From a virus: DNA of 64,000 bases. The position numbers were made by a program, and so were the translations under genes. The stretch covers positions 1,029 to 65,028 of IMG/VR virus record IMGVR_UViG_3300001598_000053; one strand, given 5' to 3'. Shown here piece by piece: positions 3,509 to 64,000 of this stretch. The first letter of the stretch is position 1. The number at the start of each line of letters is the position of its first letter. The notes beneath the pieces were generated by a model. That model was not told the DNA's origin. It ran no database searches and worked only from the letters and a program-made list of their open reading frames with translations.

Positions 3509-4366
3509 ATGATGGAGGTAAGCATAGTGAAACCAATTATAAAATGGGTCGGAGGCAAAACGCAATTGCTTCCTGCCTTACGAAAATACTTTAATAAAGA
3601 AGATATGCGCGGACACACCCTCTATGAGCCTTTCATCGGAGGTGGAGCATTGACTCTTGACTTAGCACATGAGAGCACAGTCCTCAACGATTTGAACTCA
3701 GAGCTGATAAACATGTATGAAGTAGTCAGAGATTATCCAGATGAATTGATTCTGTTGTTAAAGCAATACAGAGATATGCACAGTGAGACTCTATATTATC
3801 ACTTGCGCAACCTAGACAGAGAAGAATCATTCAAAGATTTCTCAAAAGTCAGCAAAGCGGCAAGAACAATCTACCTCAACAAGACTTGCTTCAATGGATT
3901 ATACAGAGTAAATAGCAAAGGATACTTTAATTCCCCTATGGGAAAGACAGCGTCTGGAAAAACGCCTGAGATAGTCAATGAAGACCAAATTAAGGAGATT
4001 TCAAAATACCTTAAGACTGTGAGAATCGAAAACACCTCGTTTTCGGCTGCAGTCAAAGATGCAAAACAAGGCGATTTCGTCTTCTTCGACCCTCCGTATG
4101 ACCAAGATGAGGATATCAACTCAACTGGATTCGTAGGATATCAGAAGAACGGATGGACTAGAGACGATACCATCGCCCTTAAGAACCTTTGTGATGAACT
4201 TACTTCTAAAGGAGTTCATGTCGTACTGACGAATAACGACACTTCATATGTAAGAGAGCTTTTTGCTGATTATGAAATAGAAGCAGTAGACGTCAGACGT
4301 AACATAAACAGAAACGGTTCTGCGAGAAAAGGCAGAGAAGTCATCATTAGCAATAAGCTAAATTAA
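3509..4366 (+). CDS. dam: DNA adenine methyltransferase (Dam family)
   Basis: Motif I EPFIGGGA and motif IV FFDPPYD; probable true start GTG at 3526 (SD GGAGG 8 nt upstream). Confidence 0.85.
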   Translation: MMEVSIVKPIIKWVGGKTQLLPALRKYFNKEDMRGHTLYEPFIGGGALTLDLAHESTVLNDLNSELINMYEVVRDYPDELILLLKQYRDMHSETLYYHLRNLDREESFKDFSKVSKAARTIYLNKTCFNGLYRVNSKGYFNSPMGKTASGKTPEIVNEDQIKEISKYLKTVRIENTSFSAAVKDAKQGDFVFFDPPYDQDEDINSTGFVGYQKNGWTRDDTIALKNLCDELTSKGVHVVLTNNDTSYVRELFADYEIEAVDVRRNINRNGSARKGREVIISNKLN

Positions 4367-5636: not shown

Positions 5637-5872
5637 AGCCTAAAACCGAAAACGCCCTATCTTCATTGCTGACTCTTTACTCAGAGATGGATAAGCCACC
5701 GATCATAGAGCTGCAGAACATAGATCATAACCCAGTTGCGGCACTATACTTGGAGAGAATCAGAGGAGAGAAGATAGTAATCAGCGAAACAAACAACCAA
5801 GAACGATTCTACCTATATGTAAATGGCGTAGGAATCTACTTTTCTTTCTATAAGAAGATCAACCAGAAGTAG
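5621..5872 (+). CDS. hypothetical protein
   Basis: ORF overlapping upstream stop; SD GGAGG inside upstream gene. Confidence 0.4.
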   Translation: MDHMVEPKTENALSSLLTLYSEMDKPPIIELQNIDHNPVAALYLERIRGEKIVISETNNQERFYLYVNGVGIYFSFYKKINQK

Positions 5873-6025
5873 TTCCGAAAACTACCTATTTTCAAATGCA
5901 GAATATTGGCCGATCACAGGCCTTTTATACATTAAAAAATGCTAAATTAATTACCTACAAGCATAATAACTTTGTGGGAATAAACAGAGAGAATAACAGA
6001 TAACTGACTCTCGGAAGGAACACAT

Positions 6026-8218
6026 ATGAAAGTAATTAAACGCGACGGAACATCAGTCAGTTTTGACAGTTCCAAAATCAATTCAGCCATCTCAAAAGCC
6101 AACACTAGAAGCAATGAGATGACACCAGATGATATCGACCATATCGTTGATATCGTAGAAGCAAGATGCAATAGAAACACAGATAATCTATCAGTAGAGA
6201 TTATCCAAGACCTGGTTGAAAGAGCCTTACTCGCAAGTAAGTTCAAAGCAACCGCAAAACAGTATATCCTTTACAGAGACCAAAGAACTAGAATCAGACA
6301 GTCGAAGACGAAGATGATGCAAGAGATTCTAGAAATGGTAGAAGGAAATTCTGACTACTGGAACAATGAGAATTCAAACAAAGATGCAAAGGTAGTAACG
6401 ACACAGAGAGATTATTTAGCTGGAATTACTTCCACAGAGATCGCAGAGATGTCGCTGTTGCCATCGGATGTAGTAAGAGCTCACAAAGAAGGAATCATCC
6501 ACTTCCATGATATGGACTATTTCGCTCAAGCTGCACTTCACAATTGTGATTTGATTAACTTAGAAGATATGCTTCAGAATGGGACAATGATCAACGGAAT
6601 CAAGATCGATCGCCCACATTGGCTTAGTAAAGCAGCAACTATTTCTACTCAGATCATTACAGCCGTAGCTTCTTCACAGTACGGTGGTTGTACAATCACA
6701 TTAACTCACTTAGCGCCTTTTGTAAGAGACAGTTACAATAAGTATCTGGCAAAATACAAAAGAAGAGGATGCACAGAAGAAGATGTAGTAAAATTTGCTA
6801 AAGAGGATTTAGCCACAGAATTAGAGTCAGCTGTACAGACTTTCAATTACCAAATCAACTCAATGTCAACTACTAACGGTCAAGCACCATTCATCACAGT
6901 CGGTATGTACGTTGGCGAATCAGAAGAATATAAAGAAGAAACTGCTTTACTAATCGAGGAATTCTTGAAACAGAGAATCATCGGCATGAAGAATGAGAAA
7001 GGCGTTTACATTACGCCAGCATTCCCTAAGTTAGTTTATGTATTGGAAGAAGATAATATTAAACCTGATTCAAAATATTACTATTTGACAGAACTCGCTG
7101 CAAAATGCACCGCTAAGAGAATGGTTCCAGATTACGTTTCTGAGAAAGTCATGAAACAGTTGAAGTTCAATGCTGACGGAACATCTTCTTGCTATCCTCC
7201 AATGGGATGCAGATCATTCCTGACTCCTGACAGATTCTCAGATTTACTAGGAAACGTATCTAACGCAAAGGATTTCGTCCCTGGCAAACCAAAGTTCTAC
7301 GGAAGATTCAATCAAGGAGTCGTAACGATCAGCTTACCTGATGCTGCGTTATCTTCTGGTGGAGACTTTACTAAATTCTGGAAGATCATGGATGAGAGAT
7401 TAGAGCTTTGCCACAAAGCTTTGAGATGCAGACATGAAAGATTGCTAGGAAAATTCTCAGACATGGCACCAATCCTATGGCAGGACGGCGCGCTAGCAAG
7501 ATTAGATAAGCACGAGAAGATCGATAAGCTTCTGTACGGTGGATATTCTACTATTTCACTAGGATACGGCGGACTATATGAGTGCGTTAAATTTATGACA
7601 GGTCATTCTCATACAGATGGAGCAGAAGGAGAGAAGTTCGGACTTGAAGTAATGCAAAAGCTGAATGATGCTTGTGCAAAATGGAAGTCAGAAGAGAACA
7701 TCGACTACTCTGTCTATGGAACTCCGATGGAATCTACTACTTATAAATTTGCAAAGTGCTTGAAGAAGAGATTTGGAGTAATTGAGGGAATTACAGACAG
7801 AGATTACATCACAAACTCATATCACATTCCAGTATTCGAGGAAATTGACGCATTTTCAAAATTAGCGATCGAGTCTAAATTCCAAAAGCTTTCTCCAGGA
7901 GGAGCAATCAGCTACATCGAGACTTCTGACCTTACTGGAAATATCCCAGCAGTCATGTCAGTGATCCAATTCATCTACGATAATATCATGTATGCTGAGT
8001 TGAATACTAAATCAGACTACTGTCAAGCTTGTGGTTATGACGGAGAGATTCTAATTGACGATCATATGAATTGGTACTGCCCAAATTGCGGTTGTAAAGA
8101 TCATTCTTTACTAAATGTCGCTAGAAGAACTTGTGGTTACATCGGATCAAAGTTCTGGAACTACGGAAGAACCGAAGAGATCAAAGAGAGAGTTATCCAT
8201 CTTGGAGATGAGCAGTAA
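6026..8218 (+). CDS. nrdD: anaerobic ribonucleoside-triphosphate reductase (class III)
   Basis: N-terminal ATP-cone (VIKRDG), C-terminal zinc ribbon CQACG...CPNCG and glycyl-radical motif RRTCGYIG. Confidence 0.9.
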   Translation: MKVIKRDGTSVSFDSSKINSAISKANTRSNEMTPDDIDHIVDIVEARCNRNTDNLSVEIIQDLVERALLASKFKATAKQYILYRDQRTRIRQSKTKMMQEILEMVEGNSDYWNNENSNKDAKVVTTQRDYLAGITSTEIAEMSLLPSDVVRAHKEGIIHFHDMDYFAQAALHNCDLINLEDMLQNGTMINGIKIDRPHWLSKAATISTQIITAVASSQYGGCTITLTHLAPFVRDSYNKYLAKYKRRGCTEEDVVKFAKEDLATELESAVQTFNYQINSMSTTNGQAPFITVGMYVGESEEYKEETALLIEEFLKQRIIGMKNEKGVYITPAFPKLVYVLEEDNIKPDSKYYYLTELAAKCTAKRMVPDYVSEKVMKQLKFNADGTSSCYPPMGCRSFLTPDRFSDLLGNVSNAKDFVPGKPKFYGRFNQGVVTISLPDAALSSGGDFTKFWKIMDERLELCHKALRCRHERLLGKFSDMAPILWQDGALARLDKHEKIDKLLYGGYSTISLGYGGLYECVKFMTGHSHTDGAEGEKFGLEVMQKLNDACAKWKSEENIDYSVYGTPMESTTYKFAKCLKKRFGVIEGITDRDYITNSYHIPVFEEIDAFSKLAIESKFQKLSPGGAISYIETSDLTGNIPAVMSVIQFIYDNIMYAELNTKSDYCQACGYDGEILIDDHMNWYCPNCGCKDHSLLNVARRTCGYIGSKFWNYGRTEEIKERVIHLGDEQ

Positions 8219-9806: not shown

Positions 9807-10154
9807 ATGGAAAATTATGAAATTATCAGAGACGAACGCGAAGGCGTTTCAATCAAATCTAAATTAACTCATTTTGAATATGATCTTTTAGAAGGTAAAA
9901 GTCTTAATGGAAAGACAACTTCGGATATTTGTTTTATTATGATTAGCATCGCCGGCGTTGGCTATATCGGAGTGCTCAATTATTATTTTGGTGTAGACGA
10001 TGTAGAATCAGCTTTATATTACATTGAAGCATTTGAGAACAAAAAAGCTGGAGTCTTAGACAAACTAATGAGTCGCGAAGACTTTGATTTGAGCTCATTC
10101 GGCGACGAGCTTGAAGAAGCAATCAAGAAAGACCTAGAGAAATATTCTTGGTAA
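9807..10154 (+). CDS. hypothetical early protein
   Basis: SD AAGGAGG; early promoter unit 9742-9776 upstream. Confidence 0.6.
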   Translation: MENYEIIRDEREGVSIKSKLTHFEYDLLEGKSLNGKTTSDICFIMISIAGVGYIGVLNYYFGVDDVESALYYIEAFENKKAGVLDKLMSREDFDLSSFGDELEEAIKKDLEKYSW

Positions 10155-10171
10155 GAAAGGAAAATACATAT

Positions 10172-10483
10172 ATGAGATATTACATTCATCAATTACCTAT
10201 TAGTAATAACAACATTTTCAGAGACTATGATGAAGTTAGATTCGAATTTAATGATTACGTTCCAGTATGGACAGGCGAAGTAGAAACTATCGAAGTTTTG
10301 GATAATCCAGAAAAAGTGTTAGAAGAAATATTTGAAGAATTCAATATGCGTCATCCAGAGAATTATGCAGGACACTCATTGTCTACTAGCGACGTTGTCG
10401 AATTTGTAGATCTAGATATGAGAAAGAGAGTCAGTATGTATTACTGCGATTCATTCGGTTGGAAGAAAGTTGAGGCAAAATAG
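10172..10483 (+). CDS. hypothetical early protein
   Basis: ORF; SD AAAGGAAAA before ATG 10172 (longest ORF from 10148). Confidence 0.5.
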   Translation: MRYYIHQLPISNNNIFRDYDEVRFEFNDYVPVWTGEVETIEVLDNPEKVLEEIFEEFNMRHPENYAGHSLSTSDVVEFVDLDMRKRVSMYYCDSFGWKKVEAK

Positions 10484-10484
10484 T

Positions 10485-10664
10485 ATGACAAAAGAACAAT
10501 TAGTCGAAAGAATTTTAGCTGAATTAGAGACAGATGCAGAATGCGATAATGTCGACAGTATCTATGATTTATGCATAGAACTTGTCAAAGAAGCAAAAGT
10601 CAAAACGCTGAAGCGATTAGTAAAAGAATATTGCATCGAAGACGAAGATGAAGAGGAAGAATAG
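10485..10664 (+). CDS. hypothetical small protein
   Basis: TAGTATG stop-start coupling; ORF. Confidence 0.45.
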   Translation: MTKEQLVERILAELETDAECDNVDSIYDLCIELVKEAKVKTLKRLVKEYCIEDEDEEEE

Positions 10665-10665
10665 T

Positions 10666-10947
10666 ATGAGCACTTGGGCAAGAACATATGAATGGTGTTT
10701 TAATGACAATGATCAAGAGATGATTCAGAATGTATCATTCGCTTTATCAGAAGAAGAATGGCAAATTCTAGTAGAAGAGATCAAGTCACAGACCTGTCTT
10801 ACTTCTATCTACAGTGACTTAGCGGCTACAGAAGAGAAGGTAGATATAAACGAGTTCAATGACTCAATCAATATCTGTCTGAAAATCTTCGAGAAAAAAT
10901 ATGAAGAAATTTCTAAAAAAGATATTTACAAATCATTGAAAGCCTGA
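10666..10947 (+). CDS. hypothetical small protein
   Basis: TAGTATG stop-start coupling; ends with TGA. Confidence 0.45.
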   Translation: MSTWARTYEWCFNDNDQEMIQNVSFALSEEEWQILVEEIKSQTCLTSIYSDLAATEEKVDINEFNDSINICLKIFEKKYEEISKKDIYKSLKA

Positions 10948-10976
10948 TATAATATAACCATAAGGAGATAAGAGTT

Positions 10977-11186
10977 ATGAAAAAGACAAAAGAAGATTTC
11001 GAATATTTGGTTGGCAAGACAATCAGAATCATTGAATTGGCAGATCCATACGATAAGTATCGCGGAAGAGTTGGAACAGTTCTAGGCGTTGGAGAAGATG
11101 CTTGGCACGATGTCTATCTCAGCGGAACTTGGGGCGGAGTGAACGTCTATCCAGAAGTAGACACTTATGAAATCATAGAAGATTAA
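10977..11186 (+). CDS. hypothetical small protein
   Basis: SD AAGGAGA; ORF. Confidence 0.55.
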   Translation: MKKTKEDFEYLVGKTIRIIELADPYDKYRGRVGTVLGVGEDAWHDVYLSGTWGGVNVYPEVDTYEIIED

Positions 11187-11201
11187 TAGGAGGAAATTAA
11201 C

Positions 11202-11456
11202 ATGAATAAGAAAGCAAGAGTTGAAATGGTCAGAGCGATGGACACTATCGCTAGAAGCTGCAATGACGAAGAAGTACTTATGTATTGGCTTTCGCTAGGA
11301 GTTGCTGACGGCGACTGTGAAGGACCAGATGAAGATTTAGAGACTTACTTCGAAGATGATGAAGATTTCTCTGAATTGATGGGAACTTTCTTGAAGCTGA
11401 TGTCTTCTGCTAAGAAGTCTGGCGGATTATACTGTGACAGAGTTTGCAGCAAATAA
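11202..11456 (+). CDS. hypothetical acidic protein
   Basis: SD AGGAGG; ORF. Confidence 0.55.
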   Translation: MNKKARVEMVRAMDTIARSCNDEEVLMYWLSLGVADGDCEGPDEDLETYFEDDEDFSELMGTFLKLMSSAKKSGGLYCDRVCSK

Positions 11457-11538
11457 AATAAAAATATTTTCAAAAAGCCGTTTACAAAAGACGGCTTTTA
11501 TGTTATAATATAAATGTAAGATAAATGGAGGAAAAACT

Positions 11539-11871
11539 ATGAAATATTTATTATTACAATCAAGAGCTTCGCACGAAGGCGAAGAAAATCATGTAGAGTT
11601 AGAAGTGGTTAACTGCAATATTTTTAACACAATTTCAGAAATCAGAGAAGCAGTCGAAGAAGAGTTTGAGCAAGAGCGTGAATATTATTACGGCGACGAT
11701 GAAGAAGCCTTTGAGAGAGTGGCAAAGAATTTTAATCTTAATAGTCATATCAGCTCAAATAGCTTTGAAGGCAAGAGAATTGGAATCGAATATGAAATCG
11801 CTTCTTTCAAAGACGAAAGCTATGACTATCAAACAAATATCATTTGGACAGTAGTCAAGATTGGAGACTAA
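11539..11871 (+). CDS. hypothetical early protein
   Basis: promoter/terminator unit 11476-11512; SD GGAGG. Confidence 0.6.
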   Translation: MKYLLLQSRASHEGEENHVELEVVNCNIFNTISEIREAVEEEFEQEREYYYGDDEEAFERVAKNFNLNSHISSNSFEGKRIGIEYEIASFKDESYDYQTNIIWTVVKIGD

Positions 11872-32075: not shown

Positions 32076-32098
32076 ATATTTGCTAAATTATTTGATAT
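32076..32098 (+). promoter_or_regulatory. putative late promoter motif ATATTTGCTAAATTATTTGAT
   Basis: conserved motif 20-45 nt upstream of the ribosome-binding site of gene 32118. Confidence 0.5.
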
Positions 32099-33899: not shown

Positions 33900-34547
33900 A
33901 TGGCTAGGCATCTAAACACTCTAGTATCAGGAATATTGTCTGGTGTGCTGATCGCTATAGGCGGGACGGCATTCTTACTGACTAAGCAGTATAGCGTAGT
34001 AGTTGCGAGCTTCATGTTCTCTATAGGCTTGTTCGCCATCATAGCACTTAAGCTGAATCTCTACACCGGCAAGATTGGATATGCTTTTGCGAATAAGAAA
34101 TCATACATACTAGACTTATTGATTATCTATCTTGGCAATGCCATTGGAGTTTTCATGTGCGGGCTATTCGCATATTTGGCTAAATTGCCGTTTAGTGAAA
34201 TAGCCAATGAGGTCTGTGCCACAAAGCTGTCTGACGTATCTTATTTAGGATTGGCAGTGAAAAGCGTAGGATGCGGCATATTGATATTCTTAGCCGTTGA
34301 GCTGCAGAAGAGAGACCTAGATGCCATATGGAAACTGTTTGGCATAGTGGTTTGTATCATGGCTTTTATCCTATCTGGATTTGAGCATTGCATCGCCGAC
34401 ATGTTCTATCTATTTGCTGCAGGATGCTATTCGGCCAAAGCAGTTGTTTTCATTGCGGTAGTCACATTAGGCAATAGCATAGGGTCTATTATTTTTAGAC
34501 AGGCGCTCGACTTATTGTCTAAAACTAGCAAAAGCAATATTGTATAA
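33900..34547 (+). CDS. polytopic membrane protein (possible small-molecule/nucleoside transporter)
   Basis: 6-7 predicted hydrophobic helices; sits in nucleotide-salvage cluster. Confidence 0.45.
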   Translation: MARHLNTLVSGILSGVLIAIGGTAFLLTKQYSVVVASFMFSIGLFAIIALKLNLYTGKIGYAFANKKSYILDLLIIYLGNAIGVFMCGLFAYLAKLPFSEIANEVCATKLSDVSYLGLAVKSVGCGILIFLAVELQKRDLDAIWKLFGIVVCIMAFILSGFEHCIADMFYLFAAGCYSAKAVVFIAVVTLGNSIGSIIFRQALDLLSKTSKSNIV

Positions 34548-41555: not shown

Positions 41556-42026
41556 ATGAAAATTATTAAAGATGGAAAAGATTTTCGAACAGAGATAGTT
41601 AATAACTATAAGTTAGTCTGTGATAATTGTGATTGCGAGTTTGAGTTCACGCGCGCTGACGCTGAGTCTTTGTCTAAGATGATCAATGGAGGCTGAACTG
41701 TTCGATGCCCATATTGTGGCAAAATATTAGGATTTTCAAAAGCAAATGAGATCGGCACATCAGAAGAAAAAATTAAAATTCAAAAATTTACAAAAATAAA
41801 CTTACAATTGCAGCCTACTGTTGAGCCTTACACCTATCTTAACCCATATAAGAAAAATCATTGTACTGATTGTCCAAATAATCCAGCAAATGGTTCAAAT
41901 CATTTGACAATTGGAGATTCTCCATGTCAGTGGTGTCAATATGGAACGAGACCAACTTGCATAACAAATGAATCTAGCCAAACAGCATGCAATAATTTAT
42001 TAGATAAGTATGATTCAGAATTATAA
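41556..42026 (+). CDS. zinc-ribbon protein interrupted by in-frame TGA (41694-41696)
   Basis: SD AGAGGAG; CDNCDC before and CPYCGK after the TGA, in the same frame; no start/ribosome-binding site after the TGA. Confidence 0.45.
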
Positions 42027-47183: not shown

Positions 47184-47788
47184 TGGCACAAGTAACAAAA
47201 CCAATTTTATTAAATGAAACTGGTATCTCAATTAAAGAACAATTAGAAGCGCCTGTTCAAAAAGCCATTGTTCTTAGAGGTCCAAAAGGTGATACTGGAA
47301 CAAGTATCACAAAAATAGAAAAAACATCCACAGAAGGATTAATAGACACATATACAATAACCTTTTCGGACAATACAACAACCACTTTTACGGTTGCAAA
47401 TGGCGAAAAAGGCGACAAAGGTGACACTGGAGATAAAGGCGAAACTGGTGAAACAGGTCCTCAAGGTCCAGTGCCACTTGCTATTTATCGTAATTTCATT
47501 GACACACGTGAAATAGGCGCGACCGTAACAATTTCATTAAATACATTTAATAGAACTCCTATTATTGGAGATATGGCAATGAATGTTGATGGCAGTGGAA
47601 ATTTCTGCACATGGCTAGTTATTGATGTAACAGCAACTAATGCTACTATAGAATTAAAAGCAATGATTAGTATTAAGGGTCCAAAAGGCGATAAAGGTGA
47701 TCCAGGTATGACAAAAGCAGAAATAGAGTCTTATATTGGTGCTTATATTTCTACCCACTATGAAGATGCAGATAAAGGAGCTTATTAA
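47183..47788 (+). CDS. collagen-like repeat (G-X-Y) tail fibre protein
   Basis: GEKGDKGDTGDKGETGETGPQGP and GPKGDKGDPG repeats; SD AGGAGGT. Confidence 0.6.
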   Translation: MAQVTKPILLNETGISIKEQLEAPVQKAIVLRGPKGDTGTSITKIEKTSTEGLIDTYTITFSDNTTTTFTVANGEKGDKGDTGDKGETGETGPQGPVPLAIYRNFIDTREIGATVTISLNTFNRTPIIGDMAMNVDGSGNFCTWLVIDVTATNATIELKAMISIKGPKGDKGDPGMTKAEIESYIGAYISTHYEDADKGAY

Positions 47789-47790
47789 TT

Positions 47791-49557
47791 ATGAAAGACA
47801 AAGCATTTATTAGCACTTCACACTTAGTTTTAATCGGAGACGCAATTAGACTAAAGGAACAGTCAACTGAAGCTGTGCCAGTTTCTGAAATGGCTGATAG
47901 AATAAAGAATATAAAGACCGCAGCTGGCTTACAAATCATAATGAATGATCACATAGACGAAGATGGCAAATGGCAAAAACCTGCTGATTGGGATGATATT
48001 GAGAGCATGGACCTTACTGGTCAAAATGTCTGTTATATTTTATGCGGCACTAAATTGCTGGCCAACTCATATGCAGAATTTTATACTGATTACGAAGGAA
48101 CTTGCAAGGGTTCTTATGGACACATATCTGATGGAGTATTTACAATTTATCCCGGCACAGAAGAAACAGTGATCAATAGCTCAACAAAGAGATATGGCGT
48201 AGACCTTGAGACATTGCAGCCAACAGACGACTATATTGTTGTAAAAATTGAAAGCACTGGTGCACTAAAACAGGTCAAAACTTCAAATTCAACAGAATTA
48301 TCAGGCAGTAAGCCATACACTACCGCGAACACATGCTGTGTATTGATGAGATACGCAAGATTTACAAAAGCAAACAACTTATGTTTTAATAGCTATTTCC
48401 TAGAAAGTGATAGACTTGTTGATTGTGGTATAGATATTAGAGATACAACAAATGTTATAACAATGTCTGGAATGTACCAAAACAACTATCATTTACAGCG
48501 TATTGATTGGGGCGATTTTAACCCAGCTAGACATAAAATAACATCATTTAATTATATGTTTGCAAGTTGTTATCACCTTACTGATGTTCCAGACCCACTA
48601 AATATGACGGGCTGGGTAACATCGAACTGTACAAAATTAGATTCAATGTTCCAGAACTGCTTCTGTTTAAAATCAGAACTAATTGTTAAGAACTGGGATG
48701 TTACAAAAGTTACAAGTATGCAATCTTTTTTAAATAACGCTAGAAGCGTTTCTAAATTAACTGGTTTTGATACTTGGACTACAGCTCCAGTCTGCACAAC
48801 AATTGCAAACTTCGCAACCAATGCATACAGCATATCCGGAATACTAGATTTTTCAAAATTAGCGTTTACAGATAAGTTATCTTGCTCATTAGCAAGTGCA
48901 TTCGTATACACTTACAGATTGGATAAGATTATCTTTAATAAATGTAATTTTTCTAATATTACAAGTATGGGAAGCGTATTCCAATATTCAGGAGTAAAAG
49001 AAGTAGTTTGGGATACAGACTTTATTGCCCCTGGTGCAAAATGCGCAACATTTGGAACAATGTTCGCTTCGTGCACTTGAATAAAAGAAGTTATATTTGA
49101 CGGATGGAACTTCTCTTATGCAACAGGCAGTAGAACATTAGGCAATATGGTCAGCGGTGCACATAGTATGGATAAGATAGTATTCAAAAATAATATTTAT
49201 CCTACCGCTTATAAAGATGATGGAGCCAATGCTAGCCCATTATATCAATGTACAACAATGATATATGCTGATTTTTCAGAATTTGATATGAACACTTGCA
49301 CAACAAAAACAAATATGCATCTATCTCTTGTTGATAGCTGCACAATGTTGCAAGAATTTTATCCACCACAGCATTTAAGCAAAAGCATAAAATTAAGTGC
49401 ATCAACAATGTTATCACATGATTCTCTAATTAGGGTAATAAACAATCTCGATACTGTTACGACTGCCACAACATTAACATTAGGAGCAATAAATCTTGCT
49501 AAACTTACAGATGAAGAAAAAGCAATGGCAACAACGAAAGGATGGACGTTAGCATAA
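47791..49557 (+). CDS. repeat-containing (LRR/BspA-like) tail protein with in-frame TGA at 49078-49080
   Basis: ORFs 47791-49080 and 49147-49557 share one frame; the periodic MFxxC...W repeat continues across the TGA; no ribosome-binding site for the downstream part. Confidence 0.5.
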
Positions 49558-49765
49558 TATGAAAACACGTGAAACAAAATACTTTATAGAGTTGTCGCCA
49601 GCTGTTGGCATGAGACTTACAAATAAAGAAAAAACAGAGGTATATGAATCAAATATATATATATCTACCAAAAAACGCGGCTTTATATACAAATATAGAT
49701 AGTTATATAGAGATTACAGAAGAAGAAGCACAGCAAATTATTGCTACTATTGAAGGAGAGTAACT

Positions 49766-52700
49766 ATGGCACAGATAACAAAACCAATAATGCTCGATGA
49801 AACCGGAAAAGATATAGTTGAGCAATTAGAACAATTGAACAACGTAGCCGTAGGAGTAAAAGGTGACAAGGGCGATAAAGGAGATGCCGGCGCTGATGGC
49901 AAGTCTCCACATATAGATGAGTCTACAGGCCACTGGTTTATTGGAACTGAAGACACTGGAGTAGTTGCAAAAGGTGAAAAAGGTGATAAGGGTGACAATG
50001 GCTCTGAAGTGTCAGCTAGCGATACAGGCACAAGTACAACAGTTGCAAAATATATAACAATTGATGATACAGAATATAAATTAGGTGGAAGTGGTGAGAT
50101 GTCAAAATCTGACATGGAAGCTAAAGGTATGGTATCATCAGTAAATGGTATTAATCCAGTTAGTGGCAATGTGACTATTGAAGTATCTAGCGGAGGAATA
50201 TCCGATGCAAAGAAAAAAGCTGAGCTATCTTATTACCGTTATATGGAAAACACAGCTGGTGATACAGTTAAGCCATATATGAAAGCATTGAGAAATGCGA
50301 CATTAGATATGGATGAATTTAAAAAATTAGGCTCTGGTCTATTTATTCACTGGGGTGTTTATTCAGTGCCAGCTGGAACATATACGGGTCCAAAAGTTGA
50401 AACTGCAACAACGACCACGACAAAAATGACAAGAAACTGCGAATGGGCGTTGAGAGACATGGGAATTCCTCTAGATACATATAGAAATTTTCAAGATCAA
50501 TTTACAGGAACTGAATTTGACCCAGAAGAAATAACTCAAATGGCAGTTGACTGTGGTATGAAATATATCATTATTACTGCAAAACACCATGAAGGATTCT
50601 CACTATATCCAACAAATTATGGACAGTGGGATATTAGAGAATCAGCCTGTAGAACAACAATTTTAGATGAATTAAAAGCTGCTTGCGATGCAAGAGGCCT
50701 AAAATTTGGTGTTTATTATTCACAATATTGGGACTGGGAGGCTGTCGGTGGATATGGATTAAATCATGGTGGCAAATGGACGACAACCGATCCATACACA
50801 TCTGCTCAACACTCAAAATTTATAGCAGACGTTGCTAATCAGGTTGAAGAAATCGTTGAGAAATATGATCCATATATCTTATGGTGGGATCCAGGAACGA
50901 AGTATACTGATGGATGCCAAGAAACTTTGAGAGCCGCTGAAAATGCAAGATGGCCTCAAGTTATCACTAACGATCGTTTAGATTATAATAGAGACTATGG
51001 CGACTATGGAACGGGTGAAAGAACCATTTATTTAAAAGATAGTGGAACTAGACAATTAGATTAGGGCGAATCTTGCTTTACGTTAAATAATACTTGGGGC
51101 TATTCACAAAATAACGAAACAGAGTCTTGGTATTATACACCAGAAAAAATATTTAAAGAATTCTGGCTATACACTATTTCAAATGGCCAAAACTGTTTAA
51201 TGAATATTGGACCTAAACCAGATGGTTCTATTCCTGATTTAACTAAAACAAGATGAAATCAAATGAAAACATTCATTCAAAATTATAGTAGTGGTAGCTT
51301 CTATAATTATAAGAAAATGTTCAAAACTACTCGTCCAACTTGGGGATATGCAGTAGGTTTCCCAAATAACAGCGTATATTGTTATGTTATCTCTACTAAC
51401 AATACATTAAGTGCTGAGACAATAATTGACGGTGTTGATACGACTGGACTAAAAACAACAAATCCAATTGAGATTTTAACTCCAGGAACAAATGCATCAT
51501 ACGAGATATTAGATAATTATAGAATCAAAATTACAAATCTAGCTCTTGATACAACAACTAAAATTGGTGTGGTCAAGTTAAACTATGCGGCTGACCCACT
51601 ATTAGTAGATGCTGTAGCCATGACTGATTCATATAGAATCCCAATGTCAGTATTTATTCCAAATTATTCATTCAAAGATTCATATACTGTAGCAAGCAAA
51701 CAGTATTCTTTAGGAAAAGGAAAGACGTTATCAAGCAATCCTGAAATTATTTTGGTAGACGACGATATGTATTGCAGTGCTAGACTTGATATTAACTATA
51801 GTGCAAATCAAACTGGCTCATATATTACTGAAATAACAATTACTGATAAAGCAGATTCTACAAATACAAGCACATTAACAATAAATTGTCCATCTAAAAC
51901 AGCTATTGTAAAAGAAAGTACTGATGTATTCCATTTTGAAAATGGACATAGATATAGTATTACTTATAAAACTTCTTCGTCAAGTACTGATACGACAGCA
52001 GCTACACACATGGCATTTACATTCTTCAAGAATGAAGACGCAGCAGTAACAGGTGTAACGCTTGCTCCAGACACAGCAGAAATGAACCCTGGAGATGAAG
52101 GTGTTATTTATACAGCAACAGTAGCGCCAGCAAACGCAGCCAATAAAAACGTAACATTCTCTTGTGAAAATGCAAATGTAACGTTAACACCTATTGGCCA
52201 AAATCAAGTAAAAGCGGTTGGAACAGGATATCAACAAATTAATACTACTATAAAAGTTACTACAGAAGATGGTGGATTTGAAGCAACATCTGCATTTAGC
52301 TACAATGTAACATTAGCAGAAACAGTTACGGTATCCCCAAATGGATTAACATTACCAATTAATTCAGCCGATGCCGCTACATTGACAGCCACAGTTGCTC
52401 CCGAAACAGCATCATTCAAAGAAGTTAATTGGTCAACAAGCAATGCGGCTGTAGCTACAGTAAATAATGGCGTAATCAACACATTAGCTGAAGGAACGGC
52501 TACTATCACAGCAACATCAAAAGACGGAGCTGCTAGCGGAACAGCCAATATAGCAGTTCAAGATATTCAAGTCATTCCAGTCGATAGCGTATCATTAGAT
52601 GTAAATACATTAGATTTAATGGAATGTGAATTAGCAACACTAAATGCAACTGTATTACCAGCTAATGCAACATTTAAAGCATTGACTTGGGAATCTAATA

Positions 52701-53620
52701 ATGATAATGTAAAGGTAATTGTAGACCCTGATGATGATACAAAAGCACAACTTGTCGTATTAGAAGGTGCGCCTACTGGAACAGCTACTATTACTGTAAA
52801 GACGACTCATCATGAAGAGGGCGAGGCAGCTAAACAAGCAACTTGCTCAATAAATGTAGAAGCCGAAGTTGTTAATAAATTATATGCAGCAAGCACTTTA
52901 AGTGGTTTGAAAGATGATGATAGCATTGAAGAACCATCATTATATCCATTTAGTGATGATGAACTTAACTGGACGATATTCGCTTGGGCATTTGGTTCAG
53001 CTAACCCAGCCACAGCGAGTGGCGTAGAAACAGGCACTGCAGGTCCTAATGATACAAACGCGACATTATTCCAATGTGTTAAGAATGCTTCAAGCTGGAA
53101 CGGATTTAGAGTCGACGCTGATACAAATACTGTAAAGCCTAGTACTACAAATCCATCAGGCTTGAGACCTAGATGGAATGCCTCAACTAATTTATATATG
53201 AACCCGCAGACAAAAGAGACTAGCACATCTTCTATAAATGTTAGTGGACCTACAAGTACGACTGTAGTGCATCCAATCTATTTGTCTAGAAAAACTGCAG
53301 ATGGTGCTGCTTGGAATCAATCAACATATTGGTGGTCTTGGGATGGTGTAAGCTGGAATCAATACAATGTAAGCACATCAACTTCTGGTGGAACAGGCGA
53401 ATTACGCAATATCAACGCGCCACTTACTGTATTCTATGACCTCCAAAGAAGCAGTGGACAGCTTACAAGCAACAAGTATCGTTTCTTAAAGACTGCTGGA
53501 TTACCAGACGAGCGTGCTTGTGTTGCATTCACTATACAAGCTCATTATAAGTTTGCAAAGCAATTGAAGACTTATGACAGAGAAGTAAAACAGGCTTATG
53601 ATACAGCTTTAAACAGCTAG
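49766..53620 (+). CDS. tail fibre: collagen-like N-terminus, GH29 alpha-L-fucosidase-like domain, Big_2 Ig-like repeats; in-frame TAG (51062) and TGA (51254)
   Basis: Single frame 49766-53620. GH29 motifs FIHWGVYSVPA, KYIIITAKHHEGFSLY, ILWWDPG, then after the TAG: WGYSQNNE ... NCLMNIGPKPDGSIP (GH29 C-terminal consensus). Big_2-like VTLAPDTAEMNPGDEGVIYTATVAPANAANKNVTFS repeats. Confidence 0.55.
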
Positions 53621-53716
53621 TTAAGTGTTAAAAACAATTATGCCGGCATAAAAAGTCGGCCTAATTGTATTTTTATTGAGATAAATATTGTATAATAGAA
53701 TAAAGGTGGTGAGATA

Positions 53717-53905
53717 GTGAAAATCGTTCGCAGAGAAAATGAATCAACTGAAGATTTATTAAGAAGATTTAAGACTTGGTATAAGAAATCAGGAATTAAA
53801 GAAGAATGTAGAAAACGCGAGTATTTCTTGAAAAAGTCTTTAAGATTAAAAGAAAAATCTAAGCAAGCAAGAATTAGAAACAAAAAGAAAAGCAGAGCTA
53901 ATTAG
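53717..53905 (+). CDS. rpsU: ribosomal protein bS21 homolog (phage-encoded)
   Basis: VKIVRRENESTEDLLRRFKTWYKKSGIKEECRKREYFLKKS...RIRNKKK matches the bS21 consensus (VRENE..D.ALRRFK....G.L.E.RRREFYEKP); GTG start after SD AAAGGTGG; own promoter TTGAGA-N17-TGTATAAT. Confidence 0.65.
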   Translation: MKIVRRENESTEDLLRRFKTWYKKSGIKEECRKREYFLKKSLRLKEKSKQARIRNKKKSRAN

Positions 53906-53952
53906 GCCCTGCTTTTTTAATAGATTTAATAAATAAAAATATTATTCTACTA

Positions 53953-53973
53953 TTATTTGCTAAATTAATTGAT
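53953..53973 (+). promoter_or_regulatory. putative late promoter motif TTATTTGCTAAATTAATTGAT
   Basis: upstream of tail fibre gene 54011. Confidence 0.5.
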
Positions 53974-54010
53974 TAAAATTAAAATTTAATGCAAAGGAGA
54001 TTATGATAGT

Positions 54011-56041
54011 ATGGCAAGTAACTATAAATTAAAATTTTCTGGCGCACAAGTTGATGCTAGATTAACGCAAGTAAGCACCAACTCCGAGAATTTAGCAAAA
54101 TTAGAAACAAAGGTAAATTCAAATAAAACAGAACTTAGTGACAATATTAGTAATGCACTACAATCAGCAAAAAACTATACAGATGAAGAAATAAATAATC
54201 TAGATGCCACACGAAGTCAAGATGCTTCAAGTGATAACGGATACTTACAACTATCTATTACTGAAGTCGATGGCAAGGTCACTAGTATTTCTGGAAGTAT
54301 CAGTCACACAGAAGCAGTGCAGTCAGCGAAAGACTATGCAGACGCTAAAATTGCTGATTTAGACACAACACAGAACCAAGACGCTTCAGACGATAACGGA
54401 CATTTACAGTTATCTATTACTGAAGAAGATGGCAAAATTACTAGCATTTCTGGTAGTGTAAGTCATACGGAGGCGATAGAGTCAGCAAAAACTTATGCAG
54501 ATACAAAATCAACTCAAGCTCAGAATGCAGCAATTTATAATGCACATACATACACAGATGATGCAGTAAAAGGGCATAAGATAGTGCTTACAAGACATGA
54601 GCCAACTAGTTATGCAGAACTTGATCAAACTACTATTGGCGATAAGAATGCTATATTCACAGAAGAAGGAACATACAAAATAAGTATTGATTGCCTTAAG
54701 CAATTTGCATTGGCATTAGCTTTACCGAAGTTTAAAGGACCAACGTATGATCTATATTTCAGAGTTCAATGTCCTATCAGCGATACACTTGATATCTTAA
54801 TATTTGGTCTAGCCGTAGAGAACGGAGATATATATTCAATTTATGTAGAATCAGACCACCAAGGAACAATTTATGAGTGGAATTGTGGAACTACTTATAG
54901 TGATGAACTTTCAAACTATATTATTACTAACACCAGTTCAAGTATATCTAATTATGACTTCAGGTTTTATGATAACGGCGAGTATTTCACTGATATTATA
55001 AATGATTCTTCTGATCCAGATGAAAGAGCAAAGACTTTTATAAAAGTTTGCCCATTCTATAAGGTTATAGGAGTTCAAGCAATACCAAATGAAAATAATA
55101 TCCTACATTTAAATAAATCATATTTAGAAAGTCCAGATAATTATATAGATGCGGCACATTTATCAAAAACACATTGTAATAACGATTCTCATGTAGCTAT
55201 TGGCGAGTACAATAGACCATTATTAAATAATGACCAAGCGATTAGTGATGAGCGTCAGCTTTTAACTGTTGGTAACGGTAGCTCTGACTCAAATGTTAGC
55301 AATATTCTTGATGTAACGACAGATAGAGTGTGTATCGGCCCTACTTCTGATAACAATTATTTATTCACTGTGGCAAAACAAGGCGAAAAAGATAGTGAAA
55401 CACTTCTTGGCGTCAATAAAAATGAAGAGTATGTATTTGCTAAGAGATTAACTATTGACAGATCTGCATCAACAGGAGAAGAAAATGAAGTAGCAACGCA
55501 TGGAGATATTCACAGCATCATTGATGATAAAATTTCTTCTTTAGATGCTACAAAATCACAAACAGCTTCTAGCTCAAACGGATACTTAGCTTTATCTGTA
55601 GCTGAAACTGATGGCAAAATCACTAGTATCTCAGGTTCTGTAGACTCATCTAAATATCAATCAAAATTAGTAAGCGGAACTAATATTAAAACAGTCAATG
55701 GAAATAGCATTTTAGGCACTGGTAATATAGAAGTTTCAGGTGGTTCAGGTGGATTGTACATACATTATGTACAGTTTAAGCAAACAAATGGTATCTTGAC
55801 TAGAACATATTTTTATTGTAGTAAAGATACACCTTTTACGAATATTGACGAATTAAAAGGATATATTTTTGAGAAAAATCCTACATATAGTTATGTTACA
55901 CTTGCTTGTTCGGGTCTTAACCAAAACGGTCTATCTATTAGTCATATAACTGTTTCTACTAGTGATGTATCTATTACTTATAATAGTGCAGATACATTCA
56001 TTGTAACCTCAATATATTCTAGTGCTTGTTACAAAGTATAA
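54011..56041 (+). CDS. tail fibre protein with ~50-aa internal repeats
   Basis: Repeats DATRSQDASSDNGYLQLSITEVDGKVTSISGS(I/V)SHTEA x3; late motif 53953-53973; strong terminator 56161-56203. Confidence 0.6.
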   Translation: MASNYKLKFSGAQVDARLTQVSTNSENLAKLETKVNSNKTELSDNISNALQSAKNYTDEEINNLDATRSQDASSDNGYLQLSITEVDGKVTSISGSISHTEAVQSAKDYADAKIADLDTTQNQDASDDNGHLQLSITEEDGKITSISGSVSHTEAIESAKTYADTKSTQAQNAAIYNAHTYTDDAVKGHKIVLTRHEPTSYAELDQTTIGDKNAIFTEEGTYKISIDCLKQFALALALPKFKGPTYDLYFRVQCPISDTLDILIFGLAVENGDIYSIYVESDHQGTIYEWNCGTTYSDELSNYIITNTSSSISNYDFRFYDNGEYFTDIINDSSDPDERAKTFIKVCPFYKVIGVQAIPNENNILHLNKSYLESPDNYIDAAHLSKTHCNNDSHVAIGEYNRPLLNNDQAISDERQLLTVGNGSSDSNVSNILDVTTDRVCIGPTSDNNYLFTVAKQGEKDSETLLGVNKNEEYVFAKRLTIDRSASTGEENEVATHGDIHSIIDDKISSLDATKSQTASSSNGYLALSVAETDGKITSISGSVDSSKYQSKLVSGTNIKTVNGNSILGTGNIEVSGGSGGLYIHYVQFKQTNGILTRTYFYCSKDTPFTNIDELKGYIFEKNPTYSYVTLACSGLNQNGLSISHITVSTSDVSITYNSADTFIVTSIYSSACYKV

Positions 56042-56268: not shown

Positions 56269-56964
56269 TTATTTTAACATATCGATGAGCATTGTTACAA
56301 TAGTAGCCGTTTCTTGCCGGTCGAAATTGCAAGAGCCTTGGAAGAACATAGTCAATAAATCACGATACTCCACAGATTGTTTATACGATTGAATGATTAG
56401 CTTATTATGTCGGTCATTGACATACAATTGTAATCTATTAGGGTCGAAGAGACCATCGTACTTTTCAATCCATACTCGATAGTCCTCTTTGTGCATCTTG
56501 TCCCAATAAATCCAAAATGACAGGGTGATGTCATTGTAGCCTAGTCGATACCAAAGATGAGTTTGTCTTGGTTTCTCGATGATTTCATATCTGTCTTTTG
56601 TGAGTACCTTGTTGTTGTAGTGATACTCTGCATATGTTGTGCCTTGTGTCCACCGATAGAGAGGTGTTTCTTCTTCCAGTTTTAGCAACTCTTCTTTGGT
56701 TGGGCATTTCTCGACATACAAGCCTCGATTTCTGTCTATGTATGACTTCTCAAACTCTGGAATGTTGAAATAGGTGATGTATGGCATAAACAAGTCGAGA
56801 TTATTGGACAAGAGGAACAACTTGTAATCCTTCCTAGTTCGTGTGATCGTTGAGACCAACTCCAAGAGATGATGTGGTTCATCCTTGAGGTAGTGCTTAT
56901 TCGAACCTCTCATCAAGCCGACTTCATCATAGATGATGTATTGGTCTCGAACGTAAAAAAGCAA
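56269..56964 (-). CDS. hypothetical protein (only sizeable minus-strand ORF); Walker-B-like IIYDEVG, possible truncated P-loop ATPase
   Basis: ORF bounded by bidirectional hairpin terminators; no Walker A found upstream (in-frame stop 8 codons before start). Confidence 0.4.
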   Translation of the reverse strand: MLFYVRDQYIIYDEVGLMRGSNKHYLKDEPHHLLELVSTITRTRKDYKLFLLSNNLDLFMPYITYFNIPEFEKSYIDRNRGLYVEKCPTKEELLKLEEETPLYRWTQGTTYAEYHYNNKVLTKDRYEIIEKPRQTHLWYRLGYNDITLSFWIYWDKMHKEDYRVWIEKYDGLFDPNRLQLYVNDRHNKLIIQSYKQSVEYRDLLTMFFQGSCNFDRQETATIVTMLIDMLK

Positions 56965-59511: not shown

Positions 59512-59678
59512 TCTTAGAAATATAGCCCTCTTCCAATGAGGGCTTTTATTTTTAATAAATATAGATGAATTAAATAATTAAATGCTAAATTATTAACATA
59601 GATGATTGCATAAATATTATAAAATTTTAAAATATAAACTGTATATTATCTTGTAAGCAAAACCTTGCTTATACTCTT

Positions 59679-59754
59679 GGGAGCTTAGCTCAGCTGGGAG
59701 AGCGCCACCCTTACAAGGTGGATGTCACAGGTTCGAGCCCTGTAGTTCCCACCA
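59679..59754 (+). tRNA. tRNA-Val (anticodon UAC)
   Basis: Cloverleaf: acceptor GGGAGCT/AGTTCCC, D-arm GCTCAGCTGGGAGAGC, anticodon loop CTTACAA, T-loop GGTTCGAGCC, CCA encoded. Confidence 0.85.
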
Positions 59755-59870
59755 TTCATCTTATATTTAGGTGATAATAGAGTAGATACCTCCATAAGGT
59801 TGAGATGCCTTATACCGACTGCAGCGCGTAAAGTCCACTTAGGTACGGAGTGAAGACATCGTACAAACTT

Positions 59871-59946
59871 GCCGCCTTAGCTCAATTGGCAGAGCAACGC
59901 ACTTGTAATGCGTAGGTTAATGGTTCGATTCCGTTAGGCGGCACCA
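59871..59946 (+). tRNA. tRNA-Thr (anticodon UGU)
   Basis: acceptor GCCGCCT/AGGCGGC, anticodon stem ACGCA/TGCGT loop CTTGTAA, T-loop GGTTCGATTCC, CCA. Confidence 0.85.
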
Positions 59947-60090
59947 TTCCAATGATTGCCGCTTGTTAGCGTGGAAACAGGAAAGTAGAGATAATAGCAA
60001 TCTTACCTAAATGCTAGGAAAATAGAGCTTATACTTATTTCTTAACAACTGACAAAATGAATAAAATTAGTTAAGCCAAGCATTCAATTT

Positions 60091-60166
60091 ACACCCGTAG
60101 CTCAGTAGGTTAGAGCAGGCTCCTTATAAGGGCAAGGTCGTTGGTTCAAATCCAACCAGGTGTACC
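60091..60166 (+). tRNA. tRNA, anticodon loop CTTATAA (UAU, Ile-AUA reading; assignment tentative)
   Basis: D-arm TAGCTCAGTAGGTTAGAGC, T-arm GTTGGTTCAAATCCAAC, acceptor ACACCCG/CAGGTGT, CCA. Confidence 0.65.
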
Positions 60167-60262
60167 AGTCGACAAGTATGAAGGTCGTTAAACACATACA
60201 CTAGAGCCTATACTTATTTCATTTTTATAGGAAAAAGCAAAAAATCAGTTAGGCCAATTTAT

Positions 60263-60338
60263 TGGGGTGTAGCCAAGTGGTAAGGCAACAGACTTTGACT
60301 CTGTCATTTCGCTGGTTCGATCCCAGCCACCCCAGCCA
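60263..60338 (+). tRNA. tRNA-Gln (anticodon UUG)
   Basis: acceptor TGGGGTG/CACCCCA, anticodon stem ACAGA/TCTGT loop CTTTGAC, T-arm GCTGGTTCGATCCCAGC, CCA. Confidence 0.8.
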
Positions 60339-63364: not shown

Positions 63365-63385
63365 TTATTTGCTAAATTTAATAAG
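63365..63385 (+). promoter_or_regulatory. putative late promoter motif TTATTTGCTAAATTTAATAAG
   Basis: upstream of ORF 63427. Confidence 0.45.
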
Positions 63386-63688: not shown

Positions 63689-63762
63689 ACAGGCGTAGTT
63701 CAATGGCAGAACGCCACCTTGCCAAGGTGGTCATGCGAGTTCGATTCTCGTCGCCTGCTCCA
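63689..63762 (+). tRNA. tRNA-Gly (anticodon GCC)
   Basis: D-stem GTTC/GAAC, anticodon stem CCACC/GGTGG loop TTGCCAA, T-arm GCGAGTTCGATTCTCGT, acceptor (A)CAGGCG/CGCCTG(C), disc U, CCA. Confidence 0.75.
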
Positions 63763-63830
63763 TGGAAAATAAAAATTTTCCAAAAAAAATATTTACAATG
63801 CAAAAAACGCACTGTATAATATATAGTTGT

Positions 63831-63906
63831 GGAGCGTTGGTGTAGCGGTAAACATGCTTGCCTGTCACGCAAGAGATCACAGGTTCGAATCCCGTACGCT
63901 CCGCCA
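63831..63906 (+). tRNA. tRNA-Asp (anticodon GUC)
   Basis: acceptor GGAGCGT/ACGCTCC, anticodon stem CTTGC/GCAAG loop CTGTCAC, T-loop GGTTCGAATCC, CCA; own TTTACA-N17-TGTATAAT promoter 63793-63821. Confidence 0.85.
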
Positions 63907-63907
63907 C

Positions 63908-63957
63908 TTTGGGCCAGTAGCTCAACTGGGAGAGCGCGAATATAGCTAGTCCATTTG
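63908..63957 (+). other. tRNA-like 5' fragment (acceptor + D-arm identical to tRNA-Val D-arm) closing into a short helix; possibly another split/intron-containing tRNA truncated by window end
   Basis: GGGCCAG-TA-GCTCAACTGGGAGAGC then no T-arm before TTGGCCC. Confidence 0.25.
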
Positions 63958-64000
63958 GCCCCGTCGACAAGCGGTTAAGTCACCGCCCTTTCACGGCGGG

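Follow-up and report, generated by a model that had tools for sequence, protein, structure and literature searches.

Why should a large phage carry a gene for a ribosomal protein, and what could such a gene do when it lies among tail fibre genes? The question is raised by a stretch of viral DNA of 64,000 nucleotides (nt), positions 1,029 to 65,028 of the IMG/VR record IMGVR_UViG_3300001598_000053 (hereafter the window), in which a small open reading frame (ORF) encodes a homologue of ribosomal protein bS21, the product of rpsU. This is a genuine and full-length bS21 homologue, and what it is, that it is complete, how its cassette is built, its setting in a phage and its lineage were all obtained directly. 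As to its role, we consider it probable that the gene is a true phage-borne bS21, expressed from a monocistronic cassette, whose product replaces or supplements the bS21 of the host and thereby keeps or biases translation initiation on phage mRNAs.

The identification of the gene is solid, because profile matches, matches to solved structures and structural modelling all lead to bS21. A sequence-only reading of the window had recognized the 62-amino-acid (aa) product as bS21, and the search with profile hidden Markov models (HMMs) bears this out with near-full-length matches above the curated cut-offs: PF01165 (Pfam Ribosomal_S21) is significantly matched from position 2 to 54 of its 55 (E=8e-11; 41.9 bits, cut-off 27) and the NCBIfam equivalog TIGR00030 over positions 3-58 of 58 (43.8 bits, cut-off 28.95). 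The phage family phrog_21469, “ribosomal protein S21”, is matched as well (E=1.7e-5), and the top sequence matches among solved structures are the ribosomal bS21 of S. aureus, B. subtilis and L. lactis (E 2e-9 to 2e-8). When aligned with phage and cellular bS21, the protein preserves the family core LRRFK ... RKRE[FY][FY] ... KS; F18, E35 and K47 are invariant and R17, K19, E30, R34, R44 and A51 nearly so. Its length of 62 aa also falls within the family range of ~55-70 aa. An AlphaFold (AF2) model built on ten clade sequences has a predicted local distance difference test score (pLDDT) of 91, and its first ~34 residues superpose on PDB bS21 chains at 0.8-1.0 Å. All 12 of the 12 Foldseek matches of this model in the PDB are bS21 chains, at E-values of 0.095 or above that are not significant at so small a size. 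The GTG start and the Shine-Dalgarno (SD) sequence in front of it, both read earlier, also stand, the GTG at 53717 being the earliest possible start 3′ of an in-frame TAG (53696-98). A minus-strand ORF (53638-53883) overlaps the gene; the HMM support belongs to the plus-strand frame.

The gene is phage-borne and lies outside an rpsU locus. This phage context follows from the gene order on one strand, the 27 early promoters described below, the tRNA arrays, and the helicase, NrdD, ligase and fibre genes of the window, nearly all of whose genes are on the plus strand. RsmE, MtaB, DeoC, YbeY and Era, which flank native rpsU, are found neither in the window nor in the related phage loci. The earlier placement within a tail-fibre module was right, as the flanking genes carry collagen-like repeats, Big_2, DUF285/LRR (leucine-rich repeat) and PHROG tail-fibre families; they are part of a series of fibre-like genes that spans 43.6-56 kb (collagen-like, DUF285/LRR, GH29-Big_2).

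Relatives of the protein were sought widely. A word-index protein search found the identical protein only, so that an exhaustive HMMER search was needed, which gave 254 representatives at E <= 0.001 and only two at <= 1e-10; tblastn of bS21 against GenBank phages gave weak partial matches only, in unannotated Staphylococcus and Listeria phage records. The closest representatives (48-66% identity) have E[FY]FLKKSL where most cellular bS21 carry EKPSV (97 of the top 150). The encoding contigs of six of these closest relatives (P0005, P0006, P0003, P0007, P0010 and the identical copy P0001/L001) were read, and all six are phage-like. Their neighbouring genes differ, including a clamp loader, a topoisomerase, Pnkp/RNA ligase, a CCA-adding enzyme, a peptide deformylase and runs of small ORFans. 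Since these relatives have been kept in phage contexts with differing neighbours, retention of bS21 appears to be under selection.

A scan with a clade profile over one genome per GTDB species found the FFLK(K/T)xL type in nine metagenome-assembled genomes (MAGs) of gut and rumen Bacilli, assigned to Erysipelotrichaceae, Faecalibacillus and unclassified Bacilli (L055-L063). In all nine the gene lies downstream of RsmE-MtaB-DeoC (on the short contig L058, of DeoC alone), and in five YbeY and Era follow downstream. These native proteins share 48-56% identity with that of the window. Their rpsU genes, at ~3970-4170 in each sequence, lack the widespread EKPSV and have FFLKTGL or FFLKKxL instead, and in most of them the SD is extended and very strong (-17 to -18 kcal/mol). 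Because this signature and this level of identity are common to the native rpsU of those Bacilli, the phage bS21 clade most likely derives from gut Erysipelotrichales-like Bacilli, which are also our best guess for the host range. The accompanying neighbour-joining tree has 58 columns and no support values and is not to be over-read.

How the gene may be expressed is indicated by its immediate surroundings, where a terminator hairpin, a promoter-like motif of the form TGTATAAT lacking a -35 element, an extended SD, the GTG, the ORF and a second terminator hairpin follow one another (Table 1). By this arrangement bS21 looks like its own transcription unit, a monocistronic cassette with a promoter-like motif. 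The first hairpin (RNA folding energy -16.4 kcal/mol, z = -3.9, equally stable in 0 of 200 shuffles) is terminator-like and is predicted to separate bS21 from the upstream fibre gene. The second (-14.8 kcal/mol, z = -4.2) coincides with an entry of the terminator scan, listed on the opposite strand. Pairing of the SD with the extended anti-SD is predicted at -13.5 kcal/mol, which ranks third among 99 ORFs.

The promoter itself differs from what had been described. The sequence-only reading placed a TTGAGA-N17-TATAAT promoter directly upstream, yet TTGAGA lies at 53676-81 and TATAAT at 53691-96. The promoter as claimed is therefore wrong, the spacer being 9 nt and not 17, where 16-18 nt are required, and a consensus promoter scan of the window did not return the site. 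An extended -10 of the type TGnTATAAT was considered and rejected, since the TG directly abuts TATAAT. The idea that the gene has a promoter of its own survives in another form: although the -35/N17/-10 architecture falls, a recurrent promoter-like motif, TGTATAWTA, lies upstream. TGTATAWT is also found 5′ of bS21 in the relatives L002 and L012, and GCTAAATTAATT precedes bS21 in L009 and L010 and also occurs in L012.

In the window, this motif is one of three promoter-like classes. Class 1 comprises 27 near-identical intergenic early promoters on the plus strand between 2992 and 30161, TTTACA-N17-TATAAT preceded by TGn, which continue with ATAtaTGTAA and a GGAGG Shine-Dalgarno and stand before nearly every small early gene; beyond 30161 the window has none on the plus strand. 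They are among the 34 matches to TGNTATAAT in the window (5.5 expected), from which the bS21 site is missing; it falls outside class 1 because of its abutting TG. Class 2, TGTATAWTA, has 18 copies, 16 of them on the plus strand, against 2.51 expected on both strands, a number reached in 0 of 100 shuffles. It is thus about sevenfold enriched and strand-biased, without a -35 element, and other copies stand closely before the ligase gene (37300), before several genes of the middle region and before both tRNA arrays (59640, 63813). Class 3, ATTTGCTAAATTAWWTGAT, has four exact plus-strand copies (32078, 35846, 53955, 57755) and, within 3 mismatches, six matches against 0.49 expected, one of them at 63367 with 3 mismatches; it is probably another promoter class, and the GCTAAATTAATT of L009, L010 and L012 resembles it. 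Its copy at 32078-32096 directly abuts the ATG of a 390-aa ORF at 32097, which may have a leaderless mRNA. Judged by these motifs, the putative bS21 promoter is of the type of the tRNA arrays and the ligase gene, and neither of the early type nor of that of the neighbouring fibre gene; the common motif class suggests co-expression of bS21 with other translation functions. A strong SD (<= -6 kcal/mol) is predicted at 63% of the window ORFs against 6% of random positions, by which measure the phage as a whole is strongly SD-dependent.

These features are consistent with the following course of events. The phage bS21 would be produced in large amounts and would bind the 30S platform beside the 3′ end of 16S rRNA, the site of the anti-Shine-Dalgarno sequence. 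There it could replace or supplement the host bS21, which is readily exchanged and assembles late, and initiation on the strongly SD-led mRNAs of the phage would be kept or biased during infection. bS21 is known to join the platform late in assembly, beside the anti-SD, to be exchangeable and to be needed for initiation on natural mRNAs (PMC6375957, PMC7162821). A phage bS21 was shown to incorporate into E. coli 70S ribosomes, and viral bS21 is under purifying selection, with a mean ratio of nonsynonymous to synonymous polymorphism (pN/pS) of 0.10 (PMC6375957). Moreover, phage bS21 is transcribed in situ, which was tied to late-stage replication (PMC9723584). The suggested bias in initiation rests on this position and exchangeability of bS21, together with the effects of paralogue swaps in Francisella and the use of SDs in Flavobacterium.

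Several points weigh against this role. The only functional test in the literature found ribosomes with pelagiphage bS21 almost inactive in E. coli in vitro, at ~5% of wild type (PMC6375957); the effect may therefore go in either direction and need not be a simple boost of translation. In isolation, residues 27-61 of the AF2 model form one unbroken helix, whereas the helices of ribosome-bound bS21 are kinked; over the full length the model departs from the PDB bS21 chains by a root-mean-square deviation of ~9 Å, and its Foldseek E-values fall short of significance. The cellular EKPSV turn has become LKKSL in the phage clade, and with this turn and the straight modelled helix the binding geometry of the phage protein might differ. 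The promoter motif was derived by statistics and comparison, and we only infer when the gene is expressed, that its product enters ribosomes and how translation is affected. Likewise, the host assignment, to a large phage of gut Bacillota, is indirect, being drawn from the SD sites, from early promoters of a sigma-A-like type, from the anaerobic ribonucleotide reductase (RNR) and from the helicase relatives in Bacillota phages.

The sequence-only reading had also seen apparent stop-codon recoding in the neighbouring genes, and this stands in part. A systematic scan for stops flanked on each side by 30 codons of coding-like sequence gave seven sites, three TAA together with TGA 41694-96, TGA 49078-80, TAG 51062-64 and TGA 51254-56. 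At each of the three TAA sites a start codon in frame follows closely, in two cases behind a clear SD (-6.4 kcal/mol). The same scan gave no restart signal at the four TGA/TAG sites, and no SD precedes the ATG downstream of TGA 49078-80. The sequences around the four stops (x) read MFASCT-x-IKEVIFDGWNF, RQLD-x-GESCFTLNNTWGY, DLTKTR-x-NQMK and MINGG-x-TVRCPYCGK. In the fibre gene upstream of bS21, a single Alpha_L_fucos match (residues 182-507, E=5e-57) spans both the TAG and the TGA, and PDB alignments to GH29 continue through them. Family homologues of the DUF285 gene are single proteins with a conserved C-terminal domain after the repeats, that is, after TGA 49078-80, and homologues of the Cys-rich gene (127-156 aa) align across TGA 41694-96 with invariant Cys on either side. 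The Logan contig L001 (SRR1221442) equals window 47404-54049 except that TGA 51254-56 is TGG, the sole difference in 6646 nt. Thus, four in-frame stops do interrupt three otherwise intact late genes, yet they are sparse, the window otherwise follows the standard code, and no suppressor tRNA was found in its 64 kb with ARAGORN and Rfam, the genome being incomplete and the last tRNA array running off the end of the window. Two metagenome scans, a viral DNA scan and the contig of the last ORFs, which ends inside the window, gave no extension beyond it, the PhoH-based scan giving a 4.9-kb contig only.

Relatives of the phage are more clearly recoded. In L013, TGA stands at two invariant Trp positions of the helicase (5687-7414), which is 64% identical, and in L032 TAG stands at an invariant Gln (10001-11665). 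By ORF statistics L025, L029 and L032 are clearly TAG-recoded, since reading TAG as sense yields 11-15 TAG junctions or a large gain in ORFs; coding density and mean ORF length were kept for these three only, as they are too blunt for the AT-rich L002 and L004. Suppressor tRNAs occur near phage bS21 at 230 nt in L002 (10414-10509, UCA), at 3 kb in L008 (6777-6867, CUA; one contig with L032) and at 9 kb in L040 (18908-18982, UCA). Read from sequence, those of L002 and L008 combine a long variable arm with discriminator G73, and their CCA is encoded. As this is a serine-like identity set, the residue that they place at stops might be Ser instead of Trp or Gln, which would be an unusual reassignment. 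Public gene calls of L002 (15039-15977, 19009-19560, 19570-19857) read through in-frame TGA, whose density there is low as in the window; the source pipeline evidently took L002 as using a TGA-sense code, which fits the adjacent UCA suppressor tRNA.

In the window itself, TGA ends 13 of 114 ORFs and TAG 24 of 114, including bS21 (TAG) and the interrupted fibre gene. Plus-strand coverage rises from 0.80 to 0.85 with either TGA or TAG as sense and to 0.92 with TAA, so that no gain is stop-specific, while that of L032 rises from 0.78 to 0.97 with TAG as sense. A host using code 4, considered because of the link to Mollicutes relatives, was rejected, because native genes of the candidate host MAGs have no in-frame TGA and broad use of TGA is not seen in the window. 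We lean slightly towards the TGAs being decoded in some way, and for the in-frame TAG we place decoding somewhat below an even chance. The alternative is that these stops are recent nonsense lesions in redundant fibre genes. The coincidence of bS21, sparse in-frame stops and recoded relatives is a co-occurrence only and remains a lead. If the nearby stops are decoded, the locus would also allow the replacement of a ribosomal protein and the switching of the code to be studied in one system.

Could bS21 then be one arm of a coordinated takeover of translation, in which suppressor tRNAs decode TGA and TAG in late genes and bS21 retunes the ribosome? The four stops with coding sequence on both sides and no restart, where the TAA junctions have in-frame starts, would fit this, as would homologues that are single proteins across all four sites, the lone TGA/TGG difference from L001, the recoding of L013 and L032, the suppressor tRNAs less than 10 kb from bS21 in three related loci and the promoter motif class common to bS21 and the tRNA arrays. 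Nonetheless, the 64 kb hold no suppressor tRNA where reading both TGA and TAG would require two suppressors, both codons still serve as ordinary terminators, even of bS21 itself, and coding density increases little and about equally for either. The place of bS21 on the 30S platform is remote from the centre where decoding and termination occur, so that a direct mechanism by which it could affect termination is lacking. Most of the bS21-bearing loci examined carry no recoding signal, and no paper was found in the literature that links bS21 to stop-codon recoding. We therefore regard such a takeover as quite unlikely. Perhaps, in this group of gut Bacillota jumbo phages, bS21 is part of a “translation cassette” that is mobile and moves along with suppressor tRNAs, and the phage of the window is at an incipient, low-density stage of dual (TGA and TAG) suppression in late genes, in which a common promoter class turns on both bS21 and the tRNA arrays so that ribosomes are reprogrammed; this more elaborate proposal we hold to be no less doubtful.

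A simpler view would make bS21 a passenger or moron, a host-derived copy of rpsU that tops up the host protein or stays idle without favouring phage messages. Its anatomy is moron-like, with its own promoter-like motif and terminators between two fibre genes, its position differs in every relative, and at 48-56% identity its sequence is near the native Bacilli type. A passenger would hardly be expected to stay intact and full length across phages whose bS21 are only 48-66% identical and whose neighbours differ, nor to keep the family core while helix 1 and the C-terminal tail diverge from cellular bS21; the very strong translation signal and the purifying selection on viral bS21 (mean pN/pS 0.10, PMC6375957) also speak against it, and we judge it unlikely. 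Loss of the conserved EKP turn and the predicted single long basic helix may hint instead at re-use off the ribosome, as a small basic protein binding phage RNAs or tRNAs or acting within a ribonucleoprotein (RNP). In relatives, bS21 indeed adjoins RNA-repair and tRNA genes (Pnkp/RNA ligase, CCA-adding enzyme, suppressor tRNA), and bS21 was reported as a component of the OLE RNP in Bacillota (PMC12054373). However, native Erysipelotrichales-like rpsU also lacks EKP (FFLKTGL / FFLKKSL) while lying in the canonical rpsU locus, so the FLKKSL-type signature is compatible with ribosomal function, and the ribosome-contacting core motifs are kept in the window protein. Such a change of function seems very improbable, and a ribosomal role in initiation on phage mRNAs is the reading that we prefer.

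The rest of the window is in keeping with a large phage genome. Its genes include a helicase, an anaerobic RNR (NrdD and activase), two dCMP deaminases, thymidine kinase and an ATP-dependent ligase; a Dam methylase, NADAR, a YodL-like protein, PhoH, an HslV-like peptidase and six tRNAs were also found. Neither a capsid gene nor an intact terminase gene lies within the window, and the genome must therefore be larger; relatives of the helicase (61-65% identity) are carried by IMG/VR contigs of up to 233 kb. The nearest cultured relatives, at 34-38% identity, are phages of Bacillus, Clostridium and Streptococcus. Among GenBank phages, nothing matched 51-57 kb of the window by megablast, and scanning IMG/VR with the fibre gene brought up no relatives. 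On the minus strand, the one sizeable ORF (56269-56964) matches Podovirus_Gp16 over positions 114-323 of 331 (E=1.4e-17) and phrog_2150 “terminase”; it corresponds to the C-terminal two thirds of a phi29-type packaging ATPase, the N-terminal part being missing. Its continuation upstream via a recoded stop was rejected, as that frame holds many stops, and it is a truncated remnant, perhaps of another mobile element. At 33900-34547 lies a formate/nitrite transporter family protein (PF01226, E=2.4e-29), an unusual auxiliary gene for a phage. Among the tRNAs, tRNA-Ile with anticodon TAT lies at 60091-60167, and window 63907-64000 holds a fragment resembling a tRNA 5′ half (~63910-63937), after which a tRNA begins that the window edge truncates, with anticodon TTC (Glu) by eye.

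Table 1. Features of the bS21 cassette and of other loci discussed (window coordinates)
Feature	Coordinates	Strand	Remarks
bS21 (rpsU homologue) coding sequence	53717..53905	+	62 aa, GTG start, TAG stop
Upstream hairpin, then AUUUUUAUU (U-rich run)	53634..53668	+	3′ of the TAG of the fibre gene; terminator-like
Class 2 promoter-like motif TGTATAATA	53689..53697	+	no -35 element; TG abuts TATAAT
Shine-Dalgarno AAAGGTGG	53702..53709	+	7 nt before GTG; pairing runs on into GGUGA
Downstream terminator-like hairpin	53886..53918	+	encloses bS21 stop codon; U-run at end
Class 3 motif ATTTGCTAAATTAATTGAT	53955..53973	+	right after bS21 terminator, before next fibre-like gene; marks boundary of the bS21 unit
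Upstream neighbour: collagen-like / GH29 fucosidase / Big_2 fibre gene	49766..53620	+	1284 codons
Downstream neighbour: repeat-containing fibre-like protein	54011..56041	+	676 aa; weak match to function-unknown PHROG only
DUF285/LRR fibre-like gene	47791..49557	+	in-frame TGA 49078-80
Cys-rich (zinc-ribbon-like) gene	41556..42026	+	156 codons; in-frame TGA 41694-96
tRNA array Val-TAC, Thr-TGT, Ile-TAT, Gln-TTG	59679..60338	+	class 2 motif at 59640 in front
Second tRNA array Gly-GCC, Asp-GTC	63689..63906	+	continues to window end

How does this locus compare with known systems? In stop-codon-recoded gut phages (TAG to Gln, TGA to Trp; PMC11210395, PMC10879173) in-frame stops are confined to the late region, as here, and relatives of the window likewise read TGA as Trp (L013) or TAG in a Gln-like manner (L025, L029, L032), some with suppressor tRNAs. 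Unlike these phages, the window has only four in-frame stops of two kinds in 64 kb without a suppressor tRNA, still terminates with TGA and TAG, and lacks a gain in coding density across the genome. The switching of bS21 paralogues in Francisella (PMC9578407) and the bS21-dependent control of SD use in Flavobacterium (PMC9976891) resemble the proposed role in that the identity or presence of bS21 on the 30S subunit changes which mRNA leaders are translated; yet these systems are cellular and of other phyla, and no leader specificity can be deduced from them for the window phage. Sequestration of the anti-SD by Tyr54, as in Bacteroidia (PMC7797042, PMC9723584), is not expected here, because the predicted host is SD-dependent.

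The native bS21 of Erysipelotrichaceae, Faecalibacillus and other gut Bacilli (L055-L063) is of the same length class, shares with the window protein ECRKREFFLK(K/T)xL in place of the EKPSV of other Bacillota, and its gene carries a strong extended SD of the GGAGGUGA type. It differs in lying in a cellular RsmE-MtaB-DeoC-rpsU-YbeY-Era locus, whereas the window gene lies between phage fibre genes, and in its sequence: helix 1 reads DLLRRFKTWYKKSG in the phage against DALRRFKRQVNKAG, and the tail KSKQARIRNKKKSRAN in the phage against KSENARRKNRK.

Known phage bS21 (pelagiphage HTVC008M and ~1300 uncultivated viral contigs, PMC6375957; PMC7162821; PMC9723584) is likewise a single small rpsU homologue in large lytic-type phages with tRNAs, proposed to replace host bS21, and in freshwater Bacteroidetes phages it can also sit among structural or late genes (PMC9723584). 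The sequence-only reading, which knew of bS21 in a few marine and crAss-like phages, understated this spread, as bS21 is the commonest phage-encoded ribosomal protein, found in 1310 viral genomes or contigs and making up 88% of metagenomic viral ribosomal proteins (PMC6375957), besides its occurrence in huge phages (PMC7162821) and freshwater Bacteroidetes phages (PMC9723584). Many huge-phage bS21 have an N-terminal extension, unlike that of the window (PMC7162821). Moreover, 90% of the viral bS21 in the large survey are aquatic (PMC6375957), and the bS21 of the window belongs to a gut Bacillota (Erysipelotrichales-like) lineage and not to the aquatic Proteobacteria or Bacteroidetes types. Phage-encoded bS21 is thus already well documented, and the useful particulars here are the Bacillota-type lineage and the well-delimited cassette. 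For phages of SD-dependent gut Bacillota, which have received less coverage than the aquatic cases, the locus offers a clean and compact example, and it adds an identifiable donor lineage and a defined expression cassette that could be moved into a Bacillus or Erysipelotrichaceae host for direct tests.

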